From assembly GCA_964016885.1 (NCBI GenBank), contig OZ024745.1, forward strand, positions 33,232,001 to 33,296,000: a DNA stretch of 64,000 bases. The letters run 5' to 3'. This stretch comes from Eledone cirrhosa (lineage: Eukaryota). Numbering within the stretch: the first letter of the stretch is position 1; every line of letters starts with the position of its first letter. The notes under the pieces were generated by a model, which did not search any database, had not been told where the DNA came from, and worked only from the letters and a program-made list of their open reading frames with translations. Shown piece by piece: positions 26,618-61,626 of this stretch. A program made the translations under genes and the position numbers.

Positions 26618-26648
<31 letters not shown>

Positions 26649-27052: not shown

Positions 27053-27121
<69 letters not shown>

Positions 27122-30100: not shown

Positions 30101-30749
30101 TGTGTGTGTGTGTGGGTGAGTGTCAATCCTAAAACTCGAGAAGTACCCAACCGATTTTTTTCAAACTTAACATGTGTATTACTTATGTTTCAGGGAGTGT
30201 TATGCACATACAATTCAACTTTTTGATCCCCTAGAGCCTGCATTAGTTGAAAAACTGCGTTTTTTCAGCTTTTTAAGGTTTTTTTGAGGCGTTACGTCAG
30301 ACCAATTTCCTTGAAATTGTAACTATGTATTAGTCAGTCTCTTCTTCATACCGTGAGCAAAGAAAATACAACTTTTTTATGGCTTCGGACCCGCATCAAG
30401 TGAAAAACTTCATTTTTTCAGCTTTTGAGGGCTTTTTTGAGGTGTTGCGTCTAGCCGATTTCCCGAAATTTCAAGGCATATTATGCACATAAAAAAAATT
30501 GCTTTTCTAGATCCCCTAGGGCCCGCATTAGGGGAAAACCTGCATTTTTCCTGTTTCATCGAGGAAAATCTTATCCAGCCATCAAGAGTATTCGGTTTAT
30601 TTTCTTTACATATTGTCCAGGCATGCAGTCTTTCCACGATTAGGTCTGTTGGCGGCCCGCGTTCCAAAATACCTTATCCCGTGCAATGCTGGGTACCACT
30701 GCTAGTATATATATGTGTGTGTGTGTGCATATATGTGTGTGTGTGTGCA

Positions 30750-30810
<61 letters not shown>

Positions 30811-35240: not shown

Positions 35241-35285
<45 letters not shown>

Positions 35286-41200: not shown

Positions 41201-44200
41201 ATGAAATTGAAATGTATGTTTATTTTTGTTGTAGCACAAAGTAATGTTTGTTAATTTGTATGGTTGAAGTTAAACATAAAAAGGTTACAAAAGGAATGTG
41301 CCATTGTGTCAGGCCCAAAGCAGGCCGGCAGGCCAAAGTGCAAATCTCACCGTTACACATTGTACGTGTCGTTCCTTCGGAGTTCAAGCAGCAAGAGACA
41401 GATTCTTCAAATCCTTGCGGGGAATTTCTCCCTCAGGGCGCGTAGGAATACATTCTCTTCTGCTGGCACCGATTGGCTGAACTGAGCCAAATCACGCATA
41501 GAGAATGTATGTGAGCCCGCAGAATGTAGGTCACTACAGTATTTATTCAAGAACAGATACAGATTAAAGAGTATATTAATTGATTATAATGCTAATTTTG
41601 TTACCTTATAGTCAACAAAACACAAAATAGACTGACATCTTATCCCAGGGTGAAGTATCTTTCAATAGTTTATTTTCAGTTGGAAAAGAATTGACTACAG
41701 AGTTGTGAGACAGATGAAAATTAAGTCGAGAAAGTTACAGTGTAACAAAGGTAAATTTTAATGTATTTATATTATTATTATTCAAATATAGTTTGAGTGG
41801 GGAAATTGACAGCAGAATTGGTAGAGCACCAGACCTAATGGGGTTAACATATTTTCATCCTTTTGAAGTCAATAAAATACAAGGTGGCATATTGGCAGAG
41901 CAGTTAGAACATTGGATAGAATACTTTGTGGTATTCATTCTGGCTGTCATTGCTGAGTTCAAATCCCATTGAGGTCAACTTTACCTTTCATTGTTCCAAG
42001 GTCGATGAATAAATACCTGTCCAGTGTTAAGGATGTTGGACTTACGATCATACTGTCATGGGTTTGATTCCTGGACTGGGTTTTGTGTTGTGTTCTCAAG
42101 TAAAACACTTCATTTGATATTGCTCAAGTATACTCAGCTGAAAATGAATATCAGCAACAGCTGGGAGTTTAACCTTGCGATGGGCTGCGGCCTGTTCAAG
42201 TGGGAGTCTTGCTACTCTCAGTTGTTTAATTCCATGGAAACTGGGATAAACACCTGTCTGATGAGCCTCTTGGCTTGAAACAGACTTTAGACATTTTTTT
42301 TCTATATCTTTTTCTTATTTCTTCTTCTTCATTCTCTCTTTTTCTCAGGAAGAAATCAGCTGTGTTCAGACATGGAGAGGGGATGGGCTCTGCCATGTTT
42401 AAAATGCCCAAGACACACTGTATGTCATTACAGAGCCCCTATGACTTCTCCAGGAATTATGTTACAATACATACAAAATACAATACTAGGTCAAGTACTT
42501 TGATTGTTCCTATCACATGATGCCTAACAGCTGATTCTTTGGTTATCAATCTGTTGTCCTATCAACATTGCCATCTATGATCCTCAGCAATAATCTAGGA
42601 ATAACAATAATAAACCAGAAACTTACCTAAAGTTGACATGAAGGCATTTATTAATGAGGTCTTTCCAGACCCTCTGGGACCACTTAACAGGAAATGGAAA
42701 CCATTCTGTGTGAAATTATTTATGAAGTATTTTATAGGGATCTGAAAATAAAATATTTAATAGGATCCTTAAATATAAATTTTCAATTGGAAACAAAAAA
42801 TAAAATACTAACTCTTAATGTCCTGTACTACATGAAACTGCATTAGCAAAATATTCTTGAAAAGTACAAAATAGTACTATGATTGTAATATGTTAAACAG
42901 TCTTTACTTTAACACTGTAAACTTCTACAATGACCTATCCACTAATAAAGACACTAGAAACATTTGAATTAAGTAACCCTACTTTAAAACATTTTCTATG
43001 AAACCATTAGAAGATGCTAAGAGTTAAGCAGAGTTCTCAAAGTACAAAATTAAATAGGGAGTAAAAAATACAATATTAACCTTTCTAAGGAATAACACTA
43101 TTTTGAAAATATTTTGAATAATCAAATAATTTTGAAAATAATCAAGGATTTAGAAAGATTTAGAAATATAAACTAACTTTCTTATTAAGCTGGTGTTTGG
43201 AACATAACTTACTTAAGGTTTTTATATAAAATTAAGATGAAAGGTTTTTAGAAAAATATAAATACTTGAAAATAAACAGGGGCAGTATCAAATACTTTGG
43301 TAGCAAGAGGATTAAATAGAGACCAAAAAGTACAATAACATATATATATATATAGTGTAGGTGAATCGTTCTTTGTTATATATATATAATTAAGAATGGT
43401 TTCTTGAAGCGAATCAGGAAGAAACTACAGTTAAATAAGGTACTCATTGCATTAGTAGAGAAGATAAATAATTATTTCATATAGAAATGACTTCTACAGG
43501 ACTATAACTGTTTCATTTGTTTGAAATCATCAGGAATATTCCTAATGATTTCAAACGAACAACAGTTCTAGTCTTGTAGAAGTCATTTCTATATGAAATA
43601 ATTATTTATCTTCTCTACTAATGCAATGAGTATCTTATTTAACTGTGGTTTCTTCCTGATTCGCTTCAAAAAACCATTCTTATATATATATATATATATA
43701 TGACGATGATGATGATGAGGACAACTTACTGTTCTTAGTGTGTATACATATTCTCTGTTGAAGTTATCTTGTATAACCGGAGACTCTTCAAGTGATCTAG
43801 AAAAATTAATCGTCTTGAATTTATCAAATGCATTGTGAAGTTCAGAGTGGAAGGATGAAAGGCAAAGTCAACATGGGTGGGATTTGAACTCAGAACATGA
43901 TTTATTTAGTCCAATGCTCTACCAATTCTCATCAATCACTCATCAATATTTATCCCTTTAGCGTTTACATTACTCTATATTTACTATTATATTTTCACAG
44001 TAAAAGCTTTACCTCACACAATTATCTCACATAATATCAAATCTATGAGATTTTGATATTATTTATTTTGAGAACAATACCTTAACATTAGTATGAGCAG
44101 TTGGTTGCAGCCGGTTTGAACAGAAAAGAGAATTCTGGCCAGATATGGCTGGTTTAAATGCTAATGGATTATATCTTAATATCATCCTCATCATATCATT

Positions 44201-47200
44201 TAACATCCATTTTCCATTCTATTGACCTCTAACACATGTTCCTGCACTCTACAGAGTACACCGGGTGCATTTTATCATGGCACCAGCACTATTTATATAT
44301 TTATAAGATAGTCAAAGGAGGAAGACATTATCTTTAACCATTACAGGACCTTCCAGACTGGTGAGAATGATGCCTTGCTTGAACATCCAGGAAAAACTTG
44401 TAACAGAGAGGGAACTGTAGGAATGATCCAAATCCTATAAAATGGAATGAACTTTGCTAAAGGGCGCCCATAGAACCAAGTGGTGATGAAGATGATGGTG
44501 GAGGTGGTGGTAGTAGTGTTGTTAAATGACACAGAAAGAAACCAGGACTTTTTCCCAAACTTACTTTATGTTCCAGTTCTCCCATTCTCCTGATTCATCA
44601 ACAAAAAAGTCAAACAAATAAACATCATTTTCATCTTCAGGACATCTAAAATATAGAATTATTTCTGAAGTAAGTTTTTGAAATAAAAGGAAGAAATTAG
44701 TATTTAAAATTAAAACATTTTCATCATTGCTATATATATCATATATCAAGCCTTTTGGTGCTAAGGGGCTTTTGGGGTTTATGCCCCTCCAATGTGGAAA
44801 CTTGTTGAATGATCTTAAAGTTTTGTTAGTTAAAAAATTATGTATTACTATTCAAATAAGTAACAAGTACAAATAAACACAATAAAAAGCAAGCTTTTGT
44901 TATACCATCAAAGATATCAATAGCTGTGAATGTTATGTCTATCATTATCAAAACACACAATGTATTTTTAAAAAGCAAAAAACAAATACTTATAATTTAT
45001 TTCAATATACTTGTGCTCTGGTTTTTACTACATTGATTTCCTATTGGCTCTCTGTTAGTACGATGATGTTTTTAATTTCTTTCTTAGTCTTGTATTGGGG
45101 ATAAAAGGCGCGAGCTAATAATAATAATACACATGCACAATATATGTGTATTATACACTAAAGGGGAAAGTTGATTACATCAATCCCAGTTCTTTACTGG
45201 TACTTAATTTTATCAACCCAGGAAGTATGAAATGTAAAATTGCCTTCAGTGTGTTTTGAAGTCAGAATTTAAAAGGTCATAACTAGATTCCACAAAGCAA
45301 CCTGTTCAATGCTTTAATTATTCTGCCAATCCACTGTCCTAAACATCACCTTAAGAATGAGAAAGTTGGTTATATTACTAAATCTCACGGAATTATCCAT
45401 TTTCGAAATGATTTGAAAATTAAAGGCAGTGTTTTTCATTAGAAATATGGTAATAAAATAATTAAATAATACTAGAGTTCTTTTTTTTCAAGTTTATACT
45501 TACAGATTGGTTCTTAATTTCAGAATGAATTCATTGAAGTGGAGTCTATCATTGCTGGAGAGATGGCCACCAAAAGACCACAACAGGCTGAATATAAAGA
45601 GCTTCTTAATATGACTATCATTAGAAATTGTGTGGCAGTTGGACAGTAGAACTGTTAGTATCTGAAGAGATGTAATAATCATACCAACTTCCGTAAAATG
45701 GACCGAGTCCCTGGCAAATACAAGAAGTGATTTAAAATGTTGTCATTAACTTTAAAGACAGTTCAAATTGATTGTAGTATTTGAAAAGATAAACATGCAA
45801 ATATATGTAAGGAGAAAAAAACGTTATTTAGTTTCAATGATGTATTTGTATAAATTAGATTTATATTTTTAACTGTTGGTCAATCAATGATAAATGTTGA
45901 TTGCCAGCTAAATTATTTATAAAAATATACTGAACCGAAAACCAAACCAAACAGTGAGTGTGTTTTACTAGTTTTTGGCAATATGAGGACATGACCTTCT
46001 CCAAATATAACAATAGTTATTTAATTTATATTTGCAATGTGTATGCAAATATATATGGAATGTGTATGCAAATATATATGGATCTGTCGATCAATTGGTT
46101 ATTGATTAGGCGAAACCTGCTGATGAAGCCACATGCGCCAATTGTGCACTGTAGCATAATAAATGCAGACTGTGGATGCTGTGCACTCTCTTGCTGCATT
46201 AGGTGTGGCCAAAACTCGAGTACAAGTATAGATTTATGGTACCCATTTACGTGTGTTGTATTGAAGTAAATAACCTTACCTATTGAGGATGCTGAGATGC
46301 AACCGGTACTAGCAGTGAAACTTATGCTAGTCCCTTCAACTTATATATATTGATGAGAATACAATAATGTTAGAAATGTATAGGAATAATTTCTCATGTT
46401 TTACTCTGTGATGGAAATTGAAATTATTTCCACTTCACACTTCATTCCATAGGCTTAAAACTATCTTTGGTTATGTAATATTACATAACTATACAGTCCA
46501 CCTCCTTAGGTCACAGCCTCATTAGATGTACCAAAACATTGACTGTTAAAAACACTGTGTGTGTGTGTGTGTGTGTAATTAAAAAAATATATACAAGTAT
46601 CTCACTTTATTTCTGTCTTGAAGAATTGAATGACAGAATCCATACTGGTTTGGTAACATTGCATTAGAATCTGACAATAGAAGAAACATTATTTACTCTC
46701 TTGCATTAAGGAAAACAAGACCAGATTATATGAAATGCAATCTTTATTGTGGTGAACTGGAAGTGATGTCAAATGTAATTTAGTAACGTTATGGACCTAA
46801 GTCTTTAACTCTTTAGCATTTACATTACTCTATATTTACTATTGTATTTTCACAGTAAACACTTCATCTCTATGCTCTATGAGATTTTGATATTTATTTT
46901 GAGAACAATACTTTAACATAAGTATGAGTAGCTGGTTACGGCTGCTTTGAACAGAAAGAGGTGAGAGAATTCTGGCTGGATATGGCCGGTAAATGCTAAA
47001 GAATTAAAGTTAGTAGAGTTATCAGCTTGATTCAGAAGTTTCTGGAAACAGAAGAATAATCAGAGACTTTACCTTTGAATTGTAATTTCTAAATTTCTAA
47101 TACTATTTCATATTTTATTTAGCCAGAGAGTCAGTCAAGTATACCAACCCAGTCACACTTACCTCTGCAATATCATAGCCATTCTTGGATGAATTAATCT

Positions 47201-50200
47201 AGACAAAAACAAAACAGAAAACAAACAAAAAATATGATATCAGTAACATTGATATACATAATATCTGGTGTAGACATACTGGAGCTTGATATCAAAGGAC
47301 CCTTATTTATATATAAAGGACCCTTATTTTTATATAAAGGACCATTTTTATATAAAGGACCATTTATATATAAAGGACCCTTAACTTCTGATGGAGCTGT
47401 AGTTGAGCTGTCCTGATTTGAGAGAGATGTGAAGAGAGGGGGCAAGAGAAAGGGGGGAGAGAGAGGGAGAGGTAACACCAACCTCAGTACTGAATTGATA
47501 TTTTATTTATTGATGTCAAAAGGATGAAAAGCAAAGTTGACCTCAGTAGGATTTGAATTAGGAGTGCAGTGAGCAGGAACAAATACTGAGGCATTGTGTT
47601 GGTGACAGGAAAAGCACCCAGTCAACCCTGTAAAGTAGCTATGCTGGTGACATGATGAAAAAGCACCCTTGAACATCTAACAGCCCACCCTGTTAGATGG
47701 TTGTTTTCGTGCCACAATAAAAAGCACCCAATCCTCACTGTAACATGGTTGGCATTAGGAAAGGCATCTAACTGTAGAAACCAAACCAAAATACAGATCT
47801 GTATGTGGAAGACATGGTTACCAGACTTCAATTGTCTCCTAATGTGAAAACCTTTTGAACCCATGCAAGTGTGGATGATGATGATAATGTCAGTTTGCTG
47901 TTTTACCAGTCATACTAGGTTAAATTTAAAACAACCATACCTCTCCCCAAACAAAATGTGTCCTAGTGCCACTGCTGCTGCTGCCTTATAAGTAGGTTGG
48001 GATATTTGCCCATTTCTCCGACATAAAATGGGGGGGTGGAGACATATTTGGATTATCTTATATTTATACATATATGGTACATACTTGAAGACCTTTATAT
48101 TTCTTTGCTTTGATCCACGATTTGGTCAACACTTCCCATGTAACAAGACCATCAAAATAAACCATACCCTGAAAAATAATTCATACAAATATTGGTTTCA
48201 GTTATAGGTACAGAGCCTAAAATGTTGGCAGAGTGAACAGTACTTAACTTGGTATTTTATTGACTATAGCAGGATGAATGGTAAAATCTTGGCAGGATTC
48301 TATCACAGAATGTAATGAAATGGAACTAAATATTACAGAGCATTGTTTGATAATTTACTGATTCTGTCAGAAATATTGCAATATTCAGAGATGACTAGAG
48401 TTTGCAATGGTAAGAAATGGTTTAAGAATCCTTCTTGTGACTTAGATAAAGATAGGTTGTATATTAGAGATAATATATAATCTAGAACATTCTCTACCAA
48501 TGTTTCTCAAAGTGGATTCCATTAAAAAATACTGAAGTTTTAATAAAATTTAATAAAAAATTATTACATAAAAAAAAAAAAATTCTCTCTCTAGTAATAT
48601 TTTTGTACCATATAATGTCTTATTAAAATTAGAATGGTGGGGATTGTTTGCAATATATGGTTATGGATTCTGTAATTTGGGGAAAATCATATAAGGGTTT
48701 TATGACAAAATATGTATGGGGACCACTGTTCTATACTGTGATATAAACCATACCAATTTAGCTATGGTTGTTGGTGATGCTGAGTCTATAGAATCTGTTT
48801 CTATAAAGGTCTTCACGTTGCCATTCATTGCAATTCTGTCTCCATTCTTCAATTGGATCTGGGGAGAAAAACAGACAAAATTTGTTTCAAAATTTAATTT
48901 ACATAAAAAAATACATGTCAATAACGATATTTTAAACTGATTTAGTTTAAAGTCACCCATAGACTTTACAGGTTGTGGGTCTGATTCTAGGACATGTCAA
49001 TGCATTGTGTTCTTGAGCAAGATGCTTCATTTCACATTGATTTTCACAATAGAACCATGGCTCCTACAATTAAAACATCCAAGATATGAGATGCAACTTC
49101 GTAGGAAGCCAGATAAACCTATGTAAGTGTGAGCTGTAACAACAATAACATAGCCTTTAAAGGCTTTCCTATAACACAAGGAAACCTTTATATAATCACT
49201 TGGTCTGCTAAAAAGAGAAGCCAAATCATGCCTTAAAGAAAGGAAACATTAGAAATTGTAGCCCTAGATACACTATGAAAAAAAGAAAAAAAAAAGCCAG
49301 ATGGTTTGAACTAAGTATCTAAAGAGTTAGAATAAATATTACAAGGAATTTTATCTAATGCCCTAATGCCAAATTACGACATTAGAAAACTATAATTCAA
49401 CATGAGACAAGCTATTACTGATTGTGTATGTTGGACCTCTAACAGTTCTGACAATGAGGGTTCTGGTTGTTTGAACAATGGAACAGACTTCTTGAGAAAT
49501 TAATGTACATATGGCTGAGTATTCCACTGACACACAGCATTATTGTAGTTCTGATGGAGATTCAACAGGCCCTATGAGAAGGGGTTCAGCTGATACTTTG
49601 TTCCGGGGCCCAAGAGCTAAGAAGGCCCCACAGCAACCATGCAACATTAATTTTGAGAAAAATCTTTGCCTACATTGGGCCCCAAAGGGGTCTTGTACTT
49701 CCTTGCAAAACTTCTCTTGTAGGCCCTGAGATTCAGCATGTGAATGAGTGGCATAGTTGGCTAACCCTTTGAATTACATGCCGGTACAACTCACATTTTT
49801 GCCAGCTGAGTAGATTGGAGCAACGTGAAATAAAATATTTTGCTCAAGGGCACAACACGCTCACAGGAATCAAACTCACAATCTCACAATTGCAAGTTGA
49901 ACACTTTAACCACTAAGCCAGATGGCTTCACAAAAAAGTGGACAGACATCTACAGGGATATGAATCATACATCTCTCATATGCTGCATAAGCACATTTAA
50001 CTATTATGACAAAAGGACTCTGGCTATCATTGGTTGTATTATTGTTAAGTTACCTGTTTGTTGCTGAACATACTGGTCAACTGGTCAAGCCAGGTCTCAT
50101 TTAAAGGTGAATCTATTAGAAACCAGGTTTTGAGGTTGTTCTGAAATTGAAAATACAAAAGTTCAGTAAAAATTGATTTACCAAATGACTGACTTAAACT

Positions 50201-52990
50201 TATGTTGTTATCAACATGAATTACACAACACTGGGAGTTCTGACACATTCAGTAGGTTGGAAAAATTATAAAACGATCAAGAAAGCTTTCCACTGATCCA
50301 TTATGTGAGGTTGAGTCTTCAATGATGTCTCAATAACCCAATGGGTTACAGGATATTTTCATATTTCATTTTGCTAAGTAAACTTCCTGTAAACTCCAGA
50401 CATGTTATACATATGATCACCACTGTTACACAACGCAAACACTAAAACATGATCATTAATGTTTACACCAAGGGTGGTGGATTGGCAGTATCGGTAGAGG
50501 ATTGGATGCCATGCTTTGCAGTATAGAGTTACGGCTCTTTATGATCTGAATTCAAATCCCGCCGAGGTTAACTTTGCTTTTCATCCTTATGGGGTCGATA
50601 AAATAAAGTACCAGTAATGTATTGGGTAATTGCTGGCCTTGTGCCAAAAGTAGAAACCATTATTGTTTACACCTCTCATAAATATGTGACCAGCAGTGTT
50701 ACACTATATTCATGCATGAACACGAATGTTACACCCCACACACCTGTGACCAGTGGTGTTATACTATTCTCAAACAATCACTAATGTTACACTCCCTAAC
50801 ACATCTGTGATTAATAGTGTTACATTTACACACACACACACACGAGAGTTAAGAATGGTTGTCCACAAATACAACAGAGTTCCAATCACAAGATATCAAC
50901 CACTGACCTCTAAGCTGGCATAACCATAACTAATATCACTGTTTGTGTCCTAAATATATATAATATAAACAAATAGGAAGAAATAAACTGAATATTCTCT
51001 GTTGGATGTGAAATGTTTGTATGAACGACAAAGTACAGATGTATTGACAGAAAAACTAGATTTAAGAGGAATTAGATGTAATATGCAAGAGAAATGGCTG
51101 TGTTTGTAAGGACATGTAATGCATATGGATGATGACAATTGAGTAAAAAAATGGCAGGAGATCCAAGCAGAAAAAAAGAAAGTTGTGAAAGAGAAAGAAC
51201 AAAGAAAACATGTGCAGAGATGGTGGAAGCTGGTATCAGGATGATGAACCTGTGAAAGAGATAACACACATACACAAGCAATCGTCATCCATGCACATCA
51301 CATGTCTGTACCAATGCAGTCTTCTCTCTTGTACACCACTTCAAAAATATATGTATTCAATCCTACCTTGTTTGCTTTCTTGAATGAAGACATAAAAAAT
51401 CCATCAATGAATTGTGAGTTGGAATCCATCCAACCAAATATTGGTTCCAAACTTTCAAATGACATTGGGTTGATTCTGATAAGTTTACAATTGTTAGGAT
51501 CTGATGATTTCATACCATAATTGGACATAGTTCTCATGTGCTGACTTTCATTGAATGCTTCTGCCAAAGTTTGAAGACATGTCGTCTTACCACTACCAGA
51601 AGGACCAACTACTAAAATACCTGTATAAAAATGGAATCTATATGAGAAACAGGTATGTCAATTCAAATCTTTATAGTATCTTTACTAGTGGACAGATCAT
51701 TGTAAACATTTGCAGCATTATAGTAAAGCCTTTAATATTTAATATGATGAGTTTTATTTTGAAATGTTGAAGCATGTTATTTTAATGTTGTACAGGGTGT
51801 TAAGAGTTAATCTGGTCATATATTTTGGTGTGTTGTATTTGTGAGGTTCCTAGCAATAATTATTGTATTTGTTACATGTGCTTATATTTCCATTCTAAAA
51901 GAATTGTGAACAATTTATAATGTTATTTAATTATATATTTAAAACAAATAAAATAATCATATCTGCAATTAAATAAGACGCTAGTATGTATAAATTACCG
52001 TCAAAATGCTTGGAGAGAGAGTTTAACTGCAAACATTTTGCAACCCATTCTTCAGTTACAGTCAAATTCTTTTGTTTTGCTTTATCAGAGATAATGGTTT
52101 CCAAATCCAAGGATTTTACAGATTTGTTTGGTATAGATGAAGTTCCATAAATGCATGTACTCACTAGATATTGGAATTGAACTAATACCTGGAAATAATC
52201 AATGTGGTTTGTAGACTTTAACTTATGTAGTTCTAGTATGAATGGAAAGGAACATAAAATTCAAAGTTAAAAAATTTCTCTTTAGATTAAACACAGTTCT
52301 TGATGTACAAAGACTATATTTAGAATACACACAAGCTAACCTATAGCTGTCACTCAGAATCACATAAATATTTGCTCTACAGGTTTATATATACTTATAT
52401 AACCTGTATCGAGTTCTCTCTGGATTTGGGTCTTTGTATTTGCCACCTCATAAACCTAAAATGAGGTTCAAAACTGTGTGAAAACATCTCTGATGAAAGC
52501 TGGTATCACTAATGGAGACTGGAAACAAGATGCCAATTATTGAACTCTCTGGAGCATTATATGAAGGAAAAGTACACTTTGAAATAGCTTGATGAAATTA
52601 TGAAAGGTTCAAAAGGGATGTGAGGAAGGGCTTGAAAGTGGAATTGCCAGGAAGCATGGAAGACCAAGGAGAGCTGACATGCAATGAGTGTGGGAGAGAC
52701 TGGCTCGGTAAAGCTGGATTAAAGAGTCACAAAATGAGACATATAAAAAGAGCTGATGCAGATTACGTTGGTGTGTATGATATAACAATCTGCCACTAAT
52801 GTGGTACTGTCTGCCAATAAGCAGGAGGCCTGAAGTGACACATGAAAGTATATGGCAACCAGCCATCGATTCTTGTTACCAAAAGCCATGTTTGTAACAT
52901 CTGTGCCAGAGAATGTAGGACTCTTGCAGGCCTAAAAAGTTACATCTCTGCTACACATACTCAGAAGTGATTTGAAAATTTAAGCAATGG

Positions 52991-53054
<64 letters not shown>

Positions 53055-54240
53055 TATCATCGCTTAATGTTCATTTTTCGATGCTGGCATGAGTAAGACG
53101 AGTTATCTTGTTGTAAGCAATGTCAGGTCAGGTGACCATGTCCAGCTTATACAGAACCGATTTTGGTTTGGTTTCTACAGCTAGATATATATTAGAATGT
53201 ATGTTTAAAATACCATAGCATAGTATTTAAAACATTTAGACATAAGCTAATTAGGCACTCAAAATGTGTGTGTATATAACTAACAGGTTCATAGGAGCAA
53301 AGGTTATTGTACCAATAGAAAACAAATGCCAAAGAGAGGACACAGCTTAGACTATTGTTGAAAGTATACAAGTTGATACTAACATTATTGTCTAATGCTG
53401 GACATAATATCTCCTCAATAGACTGTACTAATGAAGACATATCTATATCTTTAACAGGATTTTCTGAAGATTCTTTCATTGTTGAACTGATCTGAGACTG
53501 TCTTGAAGTGGTGCTGGGTGTTGCTGAAATAGATAAGACAACAACTTGATAATTAGGACTTTAGATTGCTTTAACCCTTTTGTCACTGTATTCCTAATGA
53601 AATACACTCATTTCAATTAATTAATGAAGAATTTTGAGGGATTTACTAAAAATATTAATTATTTTATTATTAAGATAGTAATTTAAACATATGGTGCTTA
53701 TATAAAAATTATGTTGGAAAATTTTAATTTAATTTGATAGAACCAAAGCCAGTGTTGGCGAGGTTAGAACCAAAAGGGTGTTGATAATATATATTGTGGA
53801 AGAGTCATTTTAGTTATTAAAAACATATTTAAACTGCTAAGTTCACTGAGTTGCAGTTAAACCGTGTGAGTGACCATGTTTTTGAATTGTCAGAATGATT
53901 CTTCCACAGTGTAATTGATTTAGTTTCAACACAGTCTTGGATCAAGTAACTTGCCAGACAAATACAACTTACTGTTGGAGGGAAAGGGACTGGTGAGAAG
54001 AAGGGAAGAACTTACTCCTAAACTAGAGACCTGTTGAATGGGTGTTCAACCGAGGGATGGATTAAGTTTACCACTCAGTTTGGATCGTAGGGTATGTATA
54101 GCTTTTTATAGATCTGACAGGGTTAACTGTTGGGTTACTGCACTTTGGTGGGTGTTGTTTTGCAACTACTTATTTGGCATCAAGGTGATTTATTCACAGG
54201 CTATACTCAATATCTAGAGCTAATTCCACTATTAGACATC

Positions 54241-54327
<87 letters not shown>

Positions 54328-54931
54328 TATACATAATGGAGTGGTCTGGTAGGGTTTTCCTACTGAATTGATGAAAGGTTAGTGGAGCCCATATGAAGAT
54401 AAACTTGTTAAGAGGTTCTTTCATCATTTGAATTTATAGACTTAGTGGATGCCAACCAAGGGCAACAAAATTGCTTTTAGTATAAATATAAAGTAAAGTA
54501 GACATGAGATTCTTGCCTTTGTCAGTTGCTGTCGATACCTGGCTTTCTGGACGAACTGTATCAGGTTTCTCTCCAGATTTGTCTTCTAGGGCTTTTCTAA
54601 TCTGATGAGCTCGTCTAATGGTGGCTATCATTGATGACAGACTAAACTTGGGTATCTGACATTCTGACTTGCTATGAAAAGATAAGTGAAGACTTGGCTT
54701 TTAAATAACTATGGATAAATTATTATGAAATACTATAAGCAAACAATTGTCAACATGACTAACAATATACAAAGCTCAATTTTCAGTTTTTAAGTACTGA
54801 GAATATATATACAGTGAAACCTCAGAGTGAAATCTTGTTTTGTTCTTTTTAATATATAGACTCTGCTATAGCATAAAGTGCTAATATTAGTAACTTCCAC
54901 AGTAAACTACAAATTTGCTGAATCCCCTAAT

Positions 54932-54968
<37 letters not shown>

Positions 54969-57900
54969 AATGAACCAATTCCGTCAGAAAAGTCCAGGAA
55001 AAAAGAGTGCTCTATGTAGGTAACAGAGCTTAATAGTTATGTAATAAACAACATAAGGCAATTATTTCATTTACCAGTGGTTTCTTAAAAGCAAAAAAAA
55101 ATTGCTTTCAATCATCAGAATGAAAAAATCCTGGAGTATTTATTGATGTTGGATTTTAAAAACAAAAATGCAATCTATATCGTATGTATATAGATATAGA
55201 TTGCATTTTTGTTTTTAAAATCCAACGTCAATAAATACTCCAGGATTTTTTCATTCTGATGATTGAAAGCAACATTTTTTTGCTTTTAAGAAACCACTGG
55301 TAAATGAAATAATTGCCTTATGTTGTTTATTACATAACTATATATATATATATATGCAGAAATCCCAGCAATTACCCTCTATTGGGTAAATGCTAGTACA
55401 AAAATATCATTTATTAATGTGTGGTACAATCTAAACTGGGATATATAAATATGAGGGTTCCACTTCGAATATTTAATTTAAAAAAATGGTATGTGCACAC
55501 CCACACATTTAAAACCCCCAGTTTAGCTAGGTCTAAAGCCTTGGCAAAAACAATCTGGGATCTGAAACGTGCTAATATTGAATACACAGTACAATGGTCC
55601 GTCCATACCGGAATGAAAGCTGCCCCTGTGAACTATGTTTGGCGGAGGTAATTGAAATAGTGACCGGAAAGGACCTAAATTCCCAGCATGATAGGATATT
55701 TAATTGCAAACATAAGATTCTAAAAATCTTCGCTAAATACAAACTGGACTAGAACAAGATTCAATCCCTAATGCCCAGGTTTTACTATATCCTATTTGGT
55801 ACATTTCCTGTGGAATTTGAACTTTTCACACCCAATGGATTCAGTAATATTCAAAGCAATCCCATTTTCTTAATTCCTTTCCTCCTTACCCACTCTAGCC
55901 TACTCTTAACCTCTGCCTTATCTTTCTCTGTCCCTCTCCTTATACCTTCTCTACTCCCATATATGGTAAACATCAAAACCTTCACCTATAACAATGGTCA
56001 AAGAATAATTATTCCACATCACAGCCCACAGATTGATAGTGTGAAACTCTTTACTCCCACTCCCTCTCATCTCTACTATCACACTAACTGACTCTATCTC
56101 ATTCTATTTTTAACATATTTACATATTCTTAAACGAAAATCTCATCACTGAATTATACCCCGTAGTGAATAGGTTTTCTGAAGAAGTGTAATAAATAATT
56201 AAGTATTTCATATGATTGAACAATATATATTGTAGTCAGCATAAGTAGACAATTTATAATAGACACAGAATCATATGTCAAAGCAAATAAACCCATAATC
56301 TCTTCATGTCAACATTTTATTTTTCTTGGTGCAATACTTGCTTATATATATATATTGTATTGTTATTTACTTACAGTTGAAGTTCAGCTAAAGAGACAAT
56401 CTCTAATAATCTTCCTGCCAGAATATTTCCACACTTGAAACCAGCAGCAATAAAATATCCCCTTAAAATACAGTAAATATCTGGTTTAAGGAGAGACACT
56501 GTTCGAAATACTGATTTAATCTTCCGAGCAAATTGCCAGTTTGATTTGCCAGTTTGATTCAATGGTGCAGTCATAAAGAAGAAAGTTCTTGGATTCACTT
56601 CAAATGTCTACAGGAAAATCAGTAAATGGGAGAATGTAAAACCTGAGAAATGTAATAAATATTTTCTCCTTACATTTTATTAACTTGTACAACATTTGGG
56701 AAATGAAAGGGTAAAATATTATACCTACTACATGGTCAATACATTAACCCTTTCATTACTATATTTCTAATGAAAATATACTGTTTCAAGGAATTAATAA
56801 AGAATTTTGAATGATTTACTAAAACCATTAATTATTTCATTCTTAAGATAGTTTTATGTAAGAACAATTTGTTACAAATACTATGCTAGAAGATTTTAAT
56901 TTAACTCTTTCATTACTATATTTCTAAAAAGATACACTGTCTAGCCTCAGCCACTACCAACACCATCTCCATTACCAATCCATTAAATAAGTTTCTAGTG
57001 ATACAGGCTGTACTAAACATAGTATACAAACAGTATATCTTAAGGGACTCTGCTTCATGGTGCTGGCTGACGGGATGGAGAAGACATTGTCCCGGAGGAT
57101 GGCAAGGGAGATGTACTGGAACAGCCACTCCACCTCGTGTGGCTTGGAATTGCAGGCAGCCAATTCCACTCTGATAGCTGTGAGCAGGGATATGGTCTAG
57201 GGGCCAAGAATGCCTGAAGTCTCCACTGCCACAGGCTCAACCATGAACCTATAAGAGAGAAGCCGATACTTGGACAATTTACCTTCTTAGGCCTGGTCGG
57301 CAGTGAAGCCTGAGCTGGATGAGGAGCCAACTCTCGCGAAACAAGAAGATTGTCATGTTGTCTGGCATGCAGTCCAGCTTCACTATCTTAAGCTGGGAAG
57401 AGAAGCCTGCCTATGTATTTTAATTAATTTTGAAAATCATCAAGAATTTGGAGGGATTTAGTTAAAACAGATTCTGTCATTATTAAATTAGTATTTGTAA
57501 CATAACAAAGGCTCTTAAAAAAATATAAGCAATTTAAAAAAAAAAATCATAGAACCAGGGTCAGTTTTAGTAGGTTGGTATCAAAAGGGTTAAGTACCAG
57601 TTAATGTATTGGAGTTGATATAATTGACTAAAAATCTGAGAAGGTGGTAGCCCAGGATGACCACAGATGAATGACTAATAAAAGAAAAAAAAAAAAAAAA
57701 TCAAAGAAAAGAAAATATATGTCATCATCATCATCACCATTTAATGTCTATTTTTTTCCACATTTGCATAGTTGAAACCACATAAGCTTCTTACCTATAG
57801 TGATATATATTTTATGTATAAAAACAAACTAGCAGGAGACTCAGGAATAAATCTCACGCAAGATGGTTGGATATCATCCATGAGCTTGGCTGGTCTCGCT

Positions 57901-60224
57901 TAGGGATCCAGCTGCAGATGGTTACTTCTGACAGGACCTGCTGGAAGGAGTACTTGAGGACTCTGGCCCTGTGACACTCTCAGGAATAATAATAAAGAGA
58001 AGAAGAAGAGAAAGAAAAAGAAGATTACTTACCAATTTCCTGTAGATATCATTTACTACATTGTTCTTCCTTCTGACAACATCTAGAACTACAGCAATCA
58101 GGTCCATCACAACATCTAAACATTTGTGTGAAAGTTTGTTTCCATCATTAAGACATAGCCAGCATCCTTCCTGGCAATTAGAAAGAAAATAATGGTTTCT
58201 AATTTAGACACATGGCCAGCAATTTTTAGGTGTAGGGGAAAGAAAAGACGATGGATGATCGATAAGATCCCAGACTGCATTTGGGTGGAGCTTGTCAAAT
58301 TGGACCAAGGAAACAATGTTTCCATGGGTCTTTCCATTGCTGATACTATCCACTGGTTGCAACGCCAGGCAGAAAGAGCAATATGAAATAAAGTATCTTG
58401 CTCAAGGACATGATGCATCGCCCAGTCTAGGAATCAAACTCGCAACATCACAATTGCAAATCCAATTCTCTAACCATTAAATCACATGCCTTCACATGAG
58501 GTAGGGGAAAGTCAATTATATCAGCCTCAGTACTTGACTGGTACTTTATTTTACAGTACTTTATTCTCCTCCAAGGCACAAGAATGGACAAGGTTGTTTG
58601 TGAAAAACCAGCATTCACCCATACATACCGGTTTCCCCTCTTCACACCATCGATGTTGTCCAAGGGAAAGGCAATGGCTGATACAGCTTGGCACCAGTGA
58701 CCTCACAACTCATTTCTACAGCTGAGAAAACTGAAACAATATGAAATAAATTGTCTTGCTCAAGGACACAACGCATCACCTGGTCCGGGAATCGAACTCA
58801 CAACCTCACGTTCGCAAAGCCAACACACTAACCACTGAACCAAGAAGATATAACAATGATAATTCCTCGTACCATTGAAGCACCTTGAATAATTCTTTGC
58901 ATACTTGATGGATGAAAGTGTGGAAAACATCTCAGCAGATGGTAAAACTGTGCAATGGTATTGGCTACACCCTGCGAATGGAAGGAAAAACAAAGAAAAT
59001 TTAGCAGGGAACTTTGGATAATGTAGTCCTAGATGCATTGTGTCTGGAAAGAAAGATAGAAGTGTAACAGTCAGTACAAGATTAAGATTGGCTAGCTCAG
59101 AGCAGACATGGGTGAAGCAACAACAGCACAACTATGACAATCAGCAGCAGCACAACAACAACAATATTGCAATAACAACACGCTAACAAGGAGCATGTGT
59201 GCAGGCCAAATGCCTGTTAGAAATAGCAGTTAAATCTCTCTCAAATTACACCTTCTCATTTTACAAAAAGGAAGTACTGTAATCCTAAAGTCACTATGTC
59301 AATAACAAGGTCATAGGTGTCAATAACAAGGTCATAGATGTCAATAACACTTGAGATTCAATATCATACAGTATTGAACCCAAGAGTCATTATACCATTA
59401 GATTAAATTCTTCAGCATTTGTTTTGGGTCTCTGCCCACTACGTTCAAATCTCACTGAGGTCAATTTTACTTTTTATCCATTCAGAGTTGATAAATAAAA
59501 TTCCAGCTCAGTACTTTGCTGAATCTGTTTCAGCTCTAATTTTTCTGAGTTCAAATCCTGCCTTCTGTCACCAGAAAAGTGGGGTTACTTTTGCCAGGAG
59601 TTATTTCTGGTAGATAGTATCAGAATTAGAAAGAACAATAGAAAGTTTCCTTGGTTAAATCAGATCATCAGCTTCTTTCTTTATCTACCATTTCAGTCAC
59701 TCCACAGCTACGACAACATGTATGAAGAAAAAAAATCAGGTTTGAAATCAAATATAAAGAGTCACCTTGATAGTTTCTTTCTTGCCAACATCAGGTGTAC
59801 CAACCAGGCAGACTGGCTGTAGGTTTTGAACGGCCAGGAATATGGACAAGAAACATTTGTCTGTCACCGGAGTTATGATAATGCTTGGGTTGCTTCCACA
59901 AAACTCATTGCCATAGATAAGATGGTGATCAAGGATGTCAAGGTGAGGCTTCACTTCTGTTTCTGACAAAAAAAAAAAAAATGAAAGATTTAAAATATTT
60001 CATCACACTGGGCAACAATTTTTTAGTATTGAATGAAATAGATATGTTGTTTAGCCCCATTTCAGCCCTGATCCAGTAGAACTATGATCAAAAGTGTTCC
60101 AGTAGTGACTGTTCCATCAACCTGTCTCTTTGTAGATATATTTCTCGTATTTCTCTCTTTCTGTGCCTTCTTCCCATCCTTCTTTTAAGTTCCTGAAAAC
60201 ATACACGCACGCATGTGCACTCAG

Positions 60225-60260
<36 letters not shown>

Positions 60261-61626
60261 TATGACACACTTACCATTGTTTGGTCCCAAGTAACACTTG
60301 AGGTAACGTCTCCAGTCAAAGTCGGTGCAATGTTTTACTTTTCTCTTACATATTGTATCAAGTGTGTCTCGAAGAGAAAGAGTTTGCTGTAAGTACAAGG
60401 TAAATAGACAGAAGGTAAGGTATAAAGGTAGATTGAGTAAATTGAGTGTTAAGTGTCTTTTTAAGAGATACAGGTGTTGTTGAGGAATCTGAACTTGATT
60501 TCTTGGTCAGTAAGCTCACTTTTCTATTTTATCCAATGCCCTAATAAATGATTTTTAAGTTAAGTACAAGGCCACATATTTGGGGAAAAGGAGCATTTGA
60601 TGAAATCAGACTCAGTACTTTATTTTATCAACTCTGAAAATGATGATAATATTAATTATAACAATGATAATGGTTTCTAATTTAGGCATATGACCAAACA
60701 TTTAGCAGAAGGATATAGTTTATTATATTTTAGTCATAAACAGCAACTAAAATGGTTAGCATCAGGAAGAGCATTCAGGGGTAAAACATTGCCTTAAAAA
60801 AGAATAGTATGATAGGTATGAAGTTTGTGATGAGGTCTACAAGGCTAACCCCTGTTTAGAAAGGAAGATGGCTTTAAAATGCATGTTCTATTGTTGTGAT
60901 GTAGTTGTTTATAAGGAACCCTCATATTTGATTGGTACATATAAGAATGGGCTGAAAAGTTTATATGCTGACTATCAAAGAGTGATGCTAGAGTTGTGAA
61001 ATCTTGCATGCATTAATTTCAACTCTTCTTATTAATAACTGCATTTTTTCTTTCCAGGAACTATATTGTAAAAATATACCTCATTTGGTCATTCCATGAG
61101 AGTATCTTGGTCAGCCTATGAACTTTTCAGCCACCCATTGTATATTGTAGTGATGCTAGAGCTGTGAAATCTTATGTGCATTAATTTCAACTCTTCTTAT
61201 TAATAGCTGCATTGTTTCTTTCCAGGGACTATGCTGAAAAATAAACCTCATTTGGGCATTCCATGAGAGTATCTTGGTCAGCCTAAGAACCTTTTCAGCC
61301 AACCCTCATAATCTATTGACTCTGATCAGTTATCGCCAGCAAAAATTGAACTTAGGATGTAACTTTGTACCATTTTTAACTAAATAATATTTCCTACTTA
61401 CTATTACTATCTTTTCACTTCTGAGTCGTACACGTACACTTTTGGTATCACAAGAACTTTTTGAAAACGAACGATTGAACAATGTTGATAGTTTGTTATA
61501 AATATTGCAGAACTTTTTGTAAATCTTGAACAAAGCCTTGCGTTCCTGCTTCAATTCCATAATTCCTTTCTCTACTTCTCTCGACCATAAATACAGGACA
61601 GCAAGTTGACATATTTGAGTTGGATA
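3753..61626 (-). CDS. Divergent dynein heavy chain gene, partial: 42 exons, linker end-AAA1-AAA4-stalk/MTBD-pre-AAA5; continues beyond both window ends
   Basis: Spliced exons join in frame with no stops (5955 nt). Dynein landmarks appear in the correct order: [86 protein letters not shown]. Confidence 0.93.
4949..5074 (-). CDS. dynein HC exon 41
   Basis: cag|LRSKESEW...[22 protein letters not shown]|gttagt; matches LxGExxRW...SYLGPF. Confidence 0.92.
5250..5580. repeat. (GAT)n degenerate microsatellite
   Basis: direct reading. Confidence 0.95.
5844..6044. mobile_element. Tc1/mariner-type MITE (~200 bp); further copies ~7009-7203, ~14996-15188, ~60942-61140, ~61150-61308
   Basis: ~30-bp TIRs TGAGGGTCAGCTGAAAAGTT.../...AACTTTTCAGCTGACCCTCA flanked by TA on both sides. 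Confidence 0.85.
6531..6758. repeat. (CTA/CTG)n microsatellite
   Basis: direct reading. Confidence 0.95.
6764..6957 (-). CDS. dynein HC exon 40 (stalk CC2)
   Basis: cag|DIEIT...[26 protein letters not shown]...ATNFLLE|gtatca. Confidence 0.88.
7213..7400 (+). mobile_element. tRNA-derived SINE family A; copies ~12420-12596(-), ~14290-14403(-), ~31190-31402(-), ~31724-31912(-), ~36690-36890(-), ~50472-50662(+)
   Basis: A-box-like TGGCAGTATCGG and B-box GAGTTCAAATCCCG, then conserved tttgcctttcatcc..ggggtcgataaaata core; many dispersed copies. Confidence 0.85.
7677..9740. repeat. 46/48-bp minisatellite (~43 copies) inside a SINE/RTE-tail repeat
   Basis: unit tggatgtgtaaaagacacagcaaaaagcacccagcccacactgtaaag; runs into the usual repeat tail (gttggcgttaggaaaggcatccagctgtagaaa...gatgatgat, ~9750-9912). 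Confidence 0.95.
10639..10865 (-). CDS. dynein HC exon 39 (MTBD end / CC2)
   Basis: tag|...[23 protein letters not shown]...VRELEEQI...PDN|gtaagt. Confidence 0.9.
11133..11207 (-). CDS. dynein HC exon 38 (MTBD)
   Basis: cag|[24 protein letters not shown]|gtaagg; phase 1-1. Confidence 0.78.
11667..12390 (+). mobile_element. mariner transposon remnant (left TIR + degenerate transposase N-half)
   Basis: [19 protein letters not shown]...[10 protein letters not shown]; [18 protein letters not shown]...[15 protein letters not shown], typical mariner motifs with stops and frameshifts. Confidence 0.85.
12600..13068 (-). mobile_element. RTE 3'-end copy with internal duplication; other copies ~24580-24945(-), ~25060-25325(+)
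   Basis: near-identical to the 3'UTR of the RTE at 27753-28106; (GAT)n tail. Confidence 0.85.
14566..14679 (-). CDS. dynein HC exon 37 (MTBD)
   Basis: tag|[25 protein letters not shown]...|gtaaaa. Confidence 0.88.
15993..16188 (-). CDS. dynein HC exon 36 (MTBD)
   Basis: cag|[36 protein letters not shown]...|gtaagt. Confidence 0.9.
16728..16873 (-). CDS. dynein HC exon 35 (stalk CC1)
   Basis: aag|DDDSYDEEF...[11 protein letters not shown]...SKEK|gtcaaa. Confidence 0.82.
17715..18322. repeat. GT-rich minisatellite with GGGTACC core
   Basis: repeated aagggggtacc(t/c)gtgtgtgggg units of variable length. Confidence 0.9.
18385..18850. mobile_element. TTAA-flanked piggyBac-like MITE interrupted by a family-B SINE (~18414-18665); copies ~34540-34750, ~37029-37252, ~43953-44170, ~46805-47007
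   Basis: ends resemble TTAA|CCCTTTAG...TAAAGGG|TTAA; shared internal sequence in 5 copies. Confidence 0.75.
18954..19210 (-). CDS. dynein HC exon 34 (stalk CC1)
   Basis: tag|[20 protein letters not shown]...KELLTK|gtaat; coiled-coil character. Confidence 0.88.
19375..19518 (-). CDS. dynein HC exon 33
   Basis: tag|...[33 protein letters not shown]|gtaagt. Confidence 0.9.
19743..19946 (-). CDS. dynein HC exon 32
   Basis: cag|[11 protein letters not shown]...[12 protein letters not shown]|gtaaat. Confidence 0.88.
20227..20352 (-). CDS. dynein HC exon 31 (AAA4)
   Basis: cag|[22 protein letters not shown]...|gtaat. Confidence 0.92.
20817..20956 (-). CDS. dynein HC exon 30 (AAA4)
   Basis: tag|...[18 protein letters not shown]...|gtaaat. 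Confidence 0.9.
21975..22082 (-). CDS. dynein HC exon 29 (AAA4)
   Basis: cag|[36 protein letters not shown]|gttggt. Confidence 0.9.
22780..22966 (-). CDS. dynein HC exon 28 (AAA4, P-loop absent)
   Basis: cag|[16 protein letters not shown]...[20 protein letters not shown]|gtaagt. Confidence 0.88.
23998..24038 (+). ncRNA. type I hammerhead ribozyme, intact core
   Basis: gct-CTGAGGA-acac(caaca)gtgt-GAA-acag(aat)ctGT-C-agc; three helices, GUC cleavage triplet. Confidence 0.75.
27425..30070 (+). mobile_element. non-autonomous Helitron-like element split by the RTE insertion
   Basis: 5' a|TCTCCTTATAATATAT..gtctgtctgtcc; 3' hairpin ending CTAG|t at 30070. Confidence 0.55.
27753..29961 (-). mobile_element. 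5'-truncated RTE-clade LINE (RT, Cys/His finger, C-terminus, 3'UTR, (GAT)n tail)
   Basis: ORFs 29265-30050 and 28107-29261: [56 protein letters not shown]; one in-frame TAG at 29265-29267; cagaaa(c/t)atatatacatttctgtgt duplicated at 27728-27752 and 29991-30015. Confidence 0.95.
30071..30705 (+). mobile_element. non-autonomous Helitron; related fragments at ~27170-27419(+) and ~25550-25633(-)
   Basis: starts TCTATATATATAAAA with gtctgtctgt; subterminal cccgtgcaatgctggg hairpin; ends CTAG|T. Confidence 0.8.
31981..32147 (-). CDS. dynein HC exon 27 (AAA4 start)
   Basis: cag|NVLY...IDMYN...[24 protein letters not shown]|gtaaat. Confidence 0.9.
32290..32946 (+). mobile_element. degenerate R4/Dong-type non-LTR retrotransposon 3' end (CCHC + restriction-like endonuclease)
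   Basis: [31 protein letters not shown]; LWDF; PDI; [19 protein letters not shown]. Confidence 0.85.
33038..33142 (-). CDS. dynein HC exon 26
   Basis: tag|[18 protein letters not shown]...KHTY|gtaaga; phase 0-0. Confidence 0.8.
33900..34052 (-). CDS. dynein HC exon 25
   Basis: aag|GLAKV...[24 protein letters not shown]...VND|gtatgt. Confidence 0.85.
34990..35160 (-). CDS. dynein HC exon 24
   Basis: cag|AAVNGE...IVEAS...[18 protein letters not shown]|gtttga. Confidence 0.9.
35945..36285. repeat. 48-bp tandem repeat (~7 copies), followed by short tandem/inverted ~36-bp units to ~36460
   Basis: unit taacttggtactcctgtaacataggttaagtcataagtcatcagagtc. Confidence 0.9.
36554..36628 (-). CDS. dynein HC exon 23
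   Basis: cag|[25 protein letters not shown]|gtaaat. Confidence 0.9.
37558..37698 (-). CDS. dynein HC exon 22 (AAA3)
   Basis: cag|FLRQILDE...[10 protein letters not shown]...LNQRLL|gtac. Confidence 0.88.
37968..38068 (-). CDS. dynein HC exon 21 (AAA3 Walker B)
   Basis: cag|[34 protein letters not shown]|gtaa. Confidence 0.92.
38157..38395 (+). mobile_element. old RTE fragment (another at ~51000-51300)
   Basis: [37 protein letters not shown], homologous to the 28107-29261 ORF. Confidence 0.85.
38569..38667 (-). CDS. dynein HC exon 20 (AAA3)
   Basis: tag|[33 protein letters not shown]|gtaaga. Confidence 0.88.
38745..39010. repeat. degenerate ~21-bp tandem repeat (ttaaccataaacccaa)
   Basis: direct reading. 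Confidence 0.75.
39314..41538 (-). mobile_element. non-autonomous LTR retrotransposon, two ~310-bp LTRs (39314-39623, 41230-41538)
   Basis: TGTAG...CACTACA termini; PPT agagggggagtat (minus) next to 39623; PBS-like tggcgcta (minus) near 41103-41110; no long internal ORF. Confidence 0.85.
42627..42741 (-). CDS. dynein HC exon 19 (AAA3 Walker A)
   Basis: cag|IPIKYF...[22 protein letters not shown]|gtaagt. Confidence 0.93.
43730..43796 (-). CDS. dynein HC exon 18
   Basis: tag|[22 protein letters not shown]|gtaagt. Confidence 0.85.
44565..44645 (-). CDS. dynein HC exon 17
   Basis: tag|[26 protein letters not shown]|gtaagt. Confidence 0.92.
45504..45710 (-). CDS. dynein HC exon 16
   Basis: ...[29 protein letters not shown]...|gtaagt. 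Confidence 0.92.
46115..46227 (+). ncRNA. degenerate hammerhead with long stem II insertion
   Basis: acctg-CTGATGA-a-gccacat...gtgtggc-c-AAAAC-tcga-GTA-caagt; G12 changed to A. Confidence 0.5.
46606..46670 (-). CDS. dynein HC exon 15
   Basis: cag|[21 protein letters not shown]|gtgag. Confidence 0.85.
47163..47198 (-). CDS. dynein HC exon 14 (36-nt symmetric micro-exon)
   Basis: strong polypyrimidine tract + tag|[12 protein letters not shown]|gtaagt; phase 0-0. Confidence 0.65.
48085..48168 (-). CDS. dynein HC exon 13
   Basis: cag|[28 protein letters not shown]|gtatgt. Confidence 0.9.
48754..48858 (-). CDS. dynein HC exon 12 (AAA2)
   Basis: cag|[35 protein letters not shown]|gtatg. Confidence 0.92.
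50054..50140 (-). CDS. dynein HC exon 11 (AAA2)
   Basis: cag|[29 protein letters not shown]|gtaac. Confidence 0.9.
51367..51620 (-). CDS. dynein HC exon 10 (AAA2 Walker A)
   Basis: [22 protein letters not shown]...RINPMS...IFG...FIDGFF|gtagga. Confidence 0.95.
51999..52188 (-). CDS. dynein HC exon 9
   Basis: cag|VLVQFQYLV...[18 protein letters not shown]|gtaa. Confidence 0.9.
52350..52970 (+). mobile_element. degenerate LINE C-terminus with C2H2-like fingers
   Basis: [14 protein letters not shown] and [18 protein letters not shown] fragments with frameshifts. Confidence 0.55.
53384..53523 (-). CDS. dynein HC exon 8
   Basis: cag|[10 protein letters not shown]...[17 protein letters not shown]|gttagt. 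Confidence 0.85.
54245..54322. repeat. (GA)n microsatellite
   Basis: direct reading. Confidence 0.97.
54517..54671 (-). CDS. dynein HC exon 7 (probable GC donor)
   Basis: tag|[21 protein letters not shown]...TATDK|gcaaga; phase fits the next exon only with the GC donor. Confidence 0.75.
55065..55125 (-). ncRNA. type I hammerhead ribozyme (inverted copy, on the dynein pre-mRNA strand)
   Basis: reverse complement of 55249-55309, differing only in loop II. Confidence 0.8.
55249..55309 (+). ncRNA. type I hammerhead ribozyme, intact core
   Basis: tttcatt-CTGATGA-ttgaaagcaa(loop)ttgcttttaa-GAA-acc(act)gGT-A-aatgaaa; 7-bp helix I, 10-bp helix II, GUA triplet. Confidence 0.82.
55360..56340 (+). 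mobile_element. Penelope-like element 3' remnant (GIY-YIG endonuclease fragment, 3'UTR, HHR-like motif at 56173-56284)
   Basis: PLLGKC*YKNIIY*CVV...H.HTFK...[10 protein letters not shown]...YTVQWS resembles the Neptune-type PLE endonuclease; stops present. Confidence 0.7.
56375..56607 (-). CDS. dynein HC exon 6 (AAA1)
   Basis: tag|[13 protein letters not shown]...[13 protein letters not shown]...AGF...LAELQL|gtaagt. Confidence 0.92.
58033..58170 (-). CDS. dynein HC exon 5 (AAA1, degenerate Walker B)
   Basis: cag|[21 protein letters not shown]...IYRKL|gtaagt; aligns to GAWxCFDEFNRI. Confidence 0.9.
58873..58971 (-). CDS. dynein HC exon 4 (AAA1)
   Basis: cag|[33 protein letters not shown]|gtac; phase 0-0. 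Confidence 0.82.
59766..59962 (-). CDS. dynein HC exon 3 (AAA1 start, degenerate Walker A)
   Basis: [50 protein letters not shown]; cag acceptor, gtga donor. Confidence 0.92.
60275..60386 (-). CDS. dynein HC exon 2
   Basis: cag|[37 protein letters not shown]|gtaagt; DFDW motif. Confidence 0.9.
61402..61626 (-). CDS. dynein HC exon 1 in window (linker end)
   Basis: tag|[32 protein letters not shown]...SEKIVI|gtaagt. Confidence 0.88.

Follow-up and report, generated by a model that had tools for sequence, protein, structure and literature searches.

A DNAHX-type dynein heavy chain with a largely dismantled AAA1 site in the octopod Eledone cirrhosa

The closest described relative of the gene reported here is DNAHX, a dynein heavy chain named by Chai et al. 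after cryo-electron microscopy (cryo-EM) of the sea-urchin (Lytechinus variegatus) sperm dynein XP_041462850, which proved non-motile (bioRxiv 10.1101/2025.01.18.633724). According to the main text of that preprint, the sea-urchin chain was observed in the pre-powerstroke state alone, with AAA1 occupied by ATP; its AAA4S insert touches the C-terminal cap, a folded-back stalk is predicted, and phi dimers with a different heavy chain make up 13% of the particles. The authors' model is that DNAHX keeps inner-arm dyneins silent and delivers them while the flagellum grows. The same text describes AAA1 as variable across the subfamily and links DNAHX to external fertilisation. Neither octopus nor cephalopods in general are mentioned in its main text and supplement legends (the species-tree figure may include one), and the literature searched, which mostly lay outside the subscription journals, held no study of a DNAHX gene in cephalopods. 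Here, we describe such a gene in a window of 64,000 nucleotides from Eledone cirrhosa (the whole stretch of DNA that was analysed: assembly GCA_964016885.1, contig OZ024745.1, positions 33,232,001 to 33,296,000; all coordinates below are counted within it unless another locus is named). As judged from its sequence, the gene is the octopod orthologue of DNAHX and agrees with it on each feature that sequence can test: the evidence bears on an intact reading frame, orthology, the loss of six of seven AAA1 catalytic residues, insertions in AAA4S, stalk and microtubule-binding domain (MTBD), and constraint. By analogy with the sea-urchin chain, it likely encodes a non-motile partner that keeps other axonemal dyneins inactive in flagellum assembly, probably in sperm.

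Three other kinds of dynein heavy chain have to be set beside it. The class-12 chains (DHC12) of Kollmar 2016 combine a class-3 (DNAH5/8)-like tail with a stalk without the typical microtubule-binding site; the accessible text of that study suggests an outer-arm position for them and holds no analysis of their ATP sites (PMC5100056). The window gene is similar on both counts, as its tail groups with DNAH5/8 tails and the Pfam microtubule-stalk profile PF12777 has no match at E 1e-5 in two octopod orthologues (chicken DNAH5 matches at 2.6e-43), with MTBD-like helices that are still alignable. Because the DNAH5/8-like tail and the atypical microtubule-binding site both hold in the octopod gene, DNAHX is probably class-12, a match made by description and not by sequence; class-12 is absent from the main text of the DNAHX preprint. 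The second kind, DNHD1 (class-11), had been put forward as a precedent by an initial annotation made from the letters of the window alone. According to the main text of the preprint (bioRxiv 10.1101/2025.01.18.633724), it is an orphan chain on which cilia and sperm flagella depend, its degenerate AAA1 is devoid of Walker B residues, its insertions lie at other sites, and it evolved separately. It is not the nearest precedent, and the nesting of the window protein in DNAHX speaks indirectly against a grouping with DNHD1. Finally, canonical DNAH5 and DNAH8 form the sister group in motor and tail trees and share the domain order of the window protein, but they are about 4,600 amino acids (aa) long and have 7/7 AAA1 residues and a normal stalk and MTBD, which the window protein lacks.

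The window carries on its minus strand (3753..61626) 42 of the 94 exons of the gene, which correspond to model aa 1924-3908, that is, the end of the linker, AAA1-AAA4, the stalk and the start of AAA5; the gene exceeds the window by ~55 kb upstream and ~34 kb downstream. The spliced model is homology-based: it was built against XP_052821622.1 of Octopus bimaculoides from the window and 150 kb of neighbouring sequence, one missed upstream exon being added by hand. It comprises 15,129 nt and encodes 5,042 aa with a terminal stop as the only one, above the DNAHX mark of 5,000 aa (other heavy chains, about 4,500) like its orthologues (5,020 and 5,025 aa). All 93 introns have AG acceptors, with GT donors in 91 and GC donors in 2, and the segments across junctions are as long as in the reference at 75 of 92 places (34 of 41 inside the window), whereas the two remaining frames of the spliced coding sequence contain 358 and 460 stops. 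The figure of 42 in-frame, stop-free exons given by the initial annotation is exactly what the model returns for the window. Pfam recognised dynein AAA1 (PF12774), the AAA2 lid and AAA3 on these exons. Read-derived contigs (run X1) equal the assembly, with 0 differing letters, at the exons of Walker A, sensor II and the arginine finger, in a comparison that covers three contig sets from one sample, perhaps the assembly's own, and in which the Walker B and sensor I exons fall outside the listed pieces.

Homologue searches led to DNAHX. The Walker A exon retrieved an Argonauta protein (72% identity), which in turn retrieved Octopus proteins, then Lottia and amphibian proteins that mostly exceed 5,000 aa, well above DNAH5. 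A search with the Lottia protein brought up an unbroken family whose members, reaching from a placozoan through cnidarians to amphibians, are 39-82% identical to it, with canonical chains dropping abruptly to 24-29%; XP_041462850.1 is a member of this family and carries V2221, S2322, T2324 and K2393 as in the DNAHX paper. The best full-length relatives of the window protein are octopod proteins (78% over 5,042 aa), followed by Lottia (33%) and XP_041462850 (31%), all matching end to end, whereas DNAH5/8 match only piecewise at 22-28% identity. XP_052821622.1 and XP_036354691.1 (O. sinensis) are both 78% identical over the whole length, and CAI9717935.1 (O. vulgaris) and GAB1604755.1 (Argonauta hians) are further octopod orthologues; their source labels read 'DNAH5' or 'DNAH8-like' (NCBI: DNAH5/8-like), with no mention of the degeneracy. 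In the PDB, the best 60 of 83 sequence matches were all canonical dyneins.

Four trees (51, 31, 21 and 27 rows, chosen from ~300 retrieved proteins, partial and redundant ones left out) all place the window protein inside a clade with XP_041462850, with supports of 1.0, 99.7 and 100 for the motor and 1.0 for the tail. In the 51-row motor tree this is a 31-row DNAHX clade (support 1.0), sister to DNAH5/8; in the tail tree the DNAHX grouping (1.0) is sister to the DNAH5/8 (class-3) tails with 0.997. Under LG+C20 with posterior mean site frequencies (PMSF; 21 rows), the DNAHX clade reaches 100 and the octopods join the other molluscs with a Shimodaira-Hasegawa-like approximate likelihood ratio (SH-aLRT) support of 96, a value to be taken with caution because the tree search was quick. 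Among 75 diagnostic columns, the window protein matches DNAHX in 46, canonical chains in 9 and neither in 20.

The insertions that distinguish DNAHX tell the same story. The AAA4S (pre-sensor II) segment, encoded by two exons (19512..19888, minus strand), is 79 aa long (sea-urchin DNAHX, 77; four canonical chains, 25), and its sequence is homologous to that of the sea urchin. The stalk and MTBD exons (6764..19210, minus strand) carry DNAHX-type insertions in CC1 (136 aa; sea urchin 135, canonical 91), CC2 (85; 87 and 64), pre-H3 (46; 76 and 24-32) and H5 (66; 73 and 36), the boundaries of the last two regions being our own assignment. Overall, the window protein resembles sea-urchin DNAHX by its position in the same clade sister to DNAH5/8, its length above 5,000 aa, its AAA4S insert and its CC1, CC2, pre-H3 and H5 insertions, as well as by degenerate AAA1 sensor I and sensor II and a degenerate AAA4 P-loop; it differs in being 230 aa shorter, with a shorter pre-H3 insert, and only 31% identical. 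A place of the gene in a different orphan class, DNHD1/class-11 or class-13, with long branches drawing it to DNAHX, is very unlikely: the octopod branch is indeed long, but the DNAHX inserts are homologous in sequence, beyond mere length, the octopods take a mollusc position under PMSF, and a second degenerate chain of the same genome (see below) falls outside the DNAHX clade, its union with the octopods being rejected by an approximately unbiased (AU) test (p 3.5e-28).

As an observation apart, Lys2393 of XP_041462850.1, labelled 'sensor II', aligns (MAFFT) within a ~30-aa insertion that only the DNAHX chains of echinoderms and hemichordates possess and that looks like a second copy of the sensor II helix. 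The register of this motif is therefore uncertain.

The state of the nucleotide sites was scored in the 51-row alignment at seven AAA1 positions: the Walker A Lys and Thr, the Walker B Asp and Glu, the sensor I Asn, the sensor II Arg and the AAA2 arginine finger. We take the names and roles of these motifs from general AAA+ enzyme knowledge and from the DNAHX paper. All 20 canonical dyneins scored keep 7/7; the window protein keeps one, the Walker A Lys2096. Its AAA1 N-loop and Walker A exon (59766..59962; PF12774 E 1.9e-8) reads GTPDVGKK (59801-59778) with Thr replaced by Lys; the Walker B exon (58033..58170) reads WLCLNDGN (58161-58138), Asp and Glu having become Asn and Asp; in the sensor I exon (56375..56607) FMTAPLNQ (56577-56554) shows Asn to Pro and the loss of the PGY loop; in the sensor II exon (54517..54671) KFSLSSM (54649-54629) shows Arg to Ser; and in the AAA2 arginine-finger exon (48754..48858) SPTTIAKL shows Arg to Lys (codon AAA, 48759-48757), all on the minus strand. 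The last motif is interrupted by an intron before its final Gly (48777-48754 joined to 48168). The sensor II exon also ends in a GC donor at 54517, a donor type that recurs at just one other of the model's 93 introns. The five motifs named by the initial annotation are thus real, four being found on the minus strand by six-frame scan and the fifth, intron-split, in the model, and their assignment to Walker A, Walker B, sensor I, sensor II and the arginine finger holds in the alignment; its claim that every catalytic position is dismantled stands for six of the seven, the Walker A Lys being kept. The other sites are in a different state: the Walker A motifs of AAA2 (GPSGSGKT, 51606-51583, exon 51367..51620) and AAA3 (GPRGSGKT, 42681-42658, exon 42627..42741) are intact, and the P-loop of AAA4 (exon 22780..22966, minus strand like the two others) is gone, being more degenerate than in other DNAHX.

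The two Octopus proteins likewise keep 1/7, and the octopod orthologues share the losses in the motifs GTPD[AV]GKK, WLCLADGN and SPMTITKLG, whereas the Argonauta protein differs in keeping the Walker A Thr and the Walker B Glu (3/7). Elsewhere in DNAHX, Lymnaea keeps 2/7, amphibians 3-4/7, and 10 of 11 non-octopod molluscs 5 or 6. Sea-urchin XP_041462850 keeps 6/7, with the Walker A GKT, Walker B DE, sensor I Asn and arginine finger in place, and traps ATP, when only the Lys remains in the window protein. Among the 31 DNAHX sequences compared, the octopod AAA1 is on these counts the most stripped. It may not hold Mg-ATP, the Mg-coordinating Thr being Lys and the Walker B Asp being Asn; 1/7 in octopods against 6/7 in the sea urchin suggests that the site may be nucleotide-free. 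An editable motor, in which the extensive A-to-I RNA editing of cephalopods would restore the catalytic residues, is the least probable of the alternatives considered. Microtubule motors are recoded in cephalopods, according to the accessible text of a preprint (bioRxiv 10.1101/2022.09.25.509396), and two of the six lost residues lie one A-to-G step from the canonical one (Asn2142, AAT, at 58149, to Asp; Lys2567, AAA, at 48758, to Arg). However, Thr2097, Glu2143, Asn2195 and Arg2270 are out of reach of such changes, so that full editing would give 3/7 at most; moreover, three other octopods carry an Ala at the position of the Walker B Asp, with a codon that cannot be edited to Asp, and the stalk and MTBD insertions would be untouched.

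The gene has evolved fast and yet, on the pattern of its substitutions, it is maintained by constraint. From the mollusc ancestor, the octopod root-to-tip length is ~1.57 against 0.23-0.31 in three other molluscs (~5x), and, domain by domain, the window protein is 27-45% identical to Lottia, where a bivalve reaches 56-75% and the sea urchin 41-65%; in the same genome, the AAA1 exons of DNAH5/8-type genes are 75-89% identical to bird DNAH5. Nevertheless, at sites conserved in DNAHX (defined from 27 non-octopod rows), the window protein and Argonauta agree at 1109 of 1430 positions (78%), against 416 of 773 (54%) at variable sites, and the corresponding identities with O. bimaculoides are 88% and 70%. 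That the gene is a pseudogene or is decaying free of selection is therefore highly improbable, even if the very long octopod branch is what such a gene would show: despite 22% divergence from the nearest orthologues, its 94 exons have canonical splice sites and are free of stops and frameshifts, when ~37-44 stops would be expected on the terminal branch alone (~0.10-0.12 changes per site) under neutrality, a coarse figure that leaves mutation bias and indels out of account; intact orthologues exist in at least three other octopods; and substitutions avoid the conserved sites. The view that the protein is selected and not a relic, already taken by the initial annotation, agrees with the intact frame and this constraint.

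The same data raise the question of whether the DNAHX orthologue was repurposed or largely relaxed in octopods, for example as a structural component of the sperm tail or another cilium, devoid of nucleotide and no longer engaged in phi dimers. The branch length and the low domain identities to Lottia would fit this scenario, as would the further decay of the AAA4 P-loop and the gap between 1/7 in octopods and 5 or 6 in nearly all other molluscs; octopuses also fertilise internally, as stated for O. vulgaris in the accessible text of PMC11753710. We nonetheless consider it unlikely: all DNAHX insertions are kept at near-identical lengths save for the shorter pre-H3, the same sites remain constrained, and AAA1 decay is also seen in Lymnaea and amphibians, in line with the variability stated in the main text of the DNAHX paper.

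We thus favour the reading of the gene as an octopod DNAHX with a role like that proposed in the sea urchin. An AAA1 site without Walker B acids, sensor I, sensor II and arginine finger cannot drive a powerstroke. With six of seven catalytic residues lost, the protein is likely a non-moving partner for other dyneins, and the earlier suggestion of a non-motor protein gains support from the nearest characterised relative, non-motile by cryo-EM. If the sea-urchin structure is a guide, the ring would be kept in its pre-powerstroke form by the AAA4S insert clamping the C-terminal cap, and the kinked stalk would have little affinity for microtubules; through its ring and DNAH5/8-like tail, the chain would join a different heavy chain to form a phi-shaped, autoinhibited dimer. 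Following the model of Chai et al., partner dyneins would be held inactive in this way for transport in flagellum assembly. More tentatively, the octopod chain might represent an end point of dynein decay, with an AAA1 free of Mg-ATP, evolving at ~5x the mollusc rate and acting as a structural chaperone or sperm-tail component in an internally fertilising lineage.

Several points weigh against this reading: (i), its source for DNAHX is a preprint, in the main text of which the partner heavy chain is not identified, and the transport role is unproven even in the sea urchin; (ii), our trees contain no labelled DNHD1, class-13, DNAH3/6/7/12/14 or DYNC2H1 sequences; (iii), homogeneous models leave the long octopod branch unresolved or at the base of the DNAHX clade; (iv), near-invariant DNAHX columns are kept at only 652 of 944 positions, so that the function may have drifted from that of sea-urchin DNAHX; and (v), the exon model leans on other predicted proteins.

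According to the initial annotation itself, clear orthology to an already characterised degenerate class would reduce the novelty of the gene. Trees and insertions reveal such a class in DNAHX, and the novelty is lowered to that extent: with the class known, a non-motile dynein is no longer surprising, and what is new is a DNAHX member with 1/7 AAA1 residues and a ~5x branch. The finding corrects the 'DNAH5/8-like' labels of octopus proteins, extends the range of DNAHX to cephalopods and ties DNAHX to Kollmar's overlooked class-12. The most stripped AAA1 also provides a natural test of whether the locked state needs trapped ATP; if the octopod site is nucleotide-free, the locked dynein shape would need no AAA1 nucleotide. 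Littorina, Pomacea, Lymnaea, Rhinatrema and Ambystoma, all members of the DNAHX clade, fertilise internally, as octopuses do. Internal fertilisation in octopus weighs against the link between DNAHX and external fertilisation and, if DNAHX is truly kept in an internally fertilising lineage, it would not be bound to broadcast spawning.

In the genome of E. cirrhosa, the PF12774 profile hits 96 places, grouped into 19 loci. Canonical motifs were present at 16/16 of the PF12774 places from which 30 loci were fetched, and these include three DNAH5/8-type genes. A search of the genome with a 210-aa AAA4 stretch of Lottia revealed no better-conserved second DNAHX copy (17 matches, the best at 39%, all at canonical dynein loci), which excludes only a well-conserved copy because the window's own short divergent exons were missed as well. 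The second degenerate heavy chain mentioned above lies at C26, ~7.42-7.56 Mb, on the plus strand, with Walker A GAPSVGKT, Walker B WALLDNVN and a fairly normal MTBD. It is a candidate DNHD1/class-11 or class-13 gene and may be the DNHD1-type one; its grouping with the octopod DNAHX is the only placement that was submitted to the AU test. At C19:6.71 Mb and 6.80 Mb, two DNAH9/17-type genes of near-equal score lie on opposite strands ~90 kb apart, which suggests a recent inverted duplication or an assembly duplicate.

The introns of the window gene contain repeats. Inside the 9-kb intron 31980-22967, a remnant of a retrotransposon of the long interspersed nuclear element (LINE) type occupies 28110-30071 on the minus strand, with two adjacent open reading frames separated by a stop, a reverse transcriptase (PF00078) and a PHD-finger-like zinc finger. 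Two homogeneous intronic minisatellites are also present, one at 946-3322 (33 copies of 72 bp, 97% matches) and one at 7677-9756 (44 copies of ~48 bp, 94%), the latter yielding long repetitive open frames.

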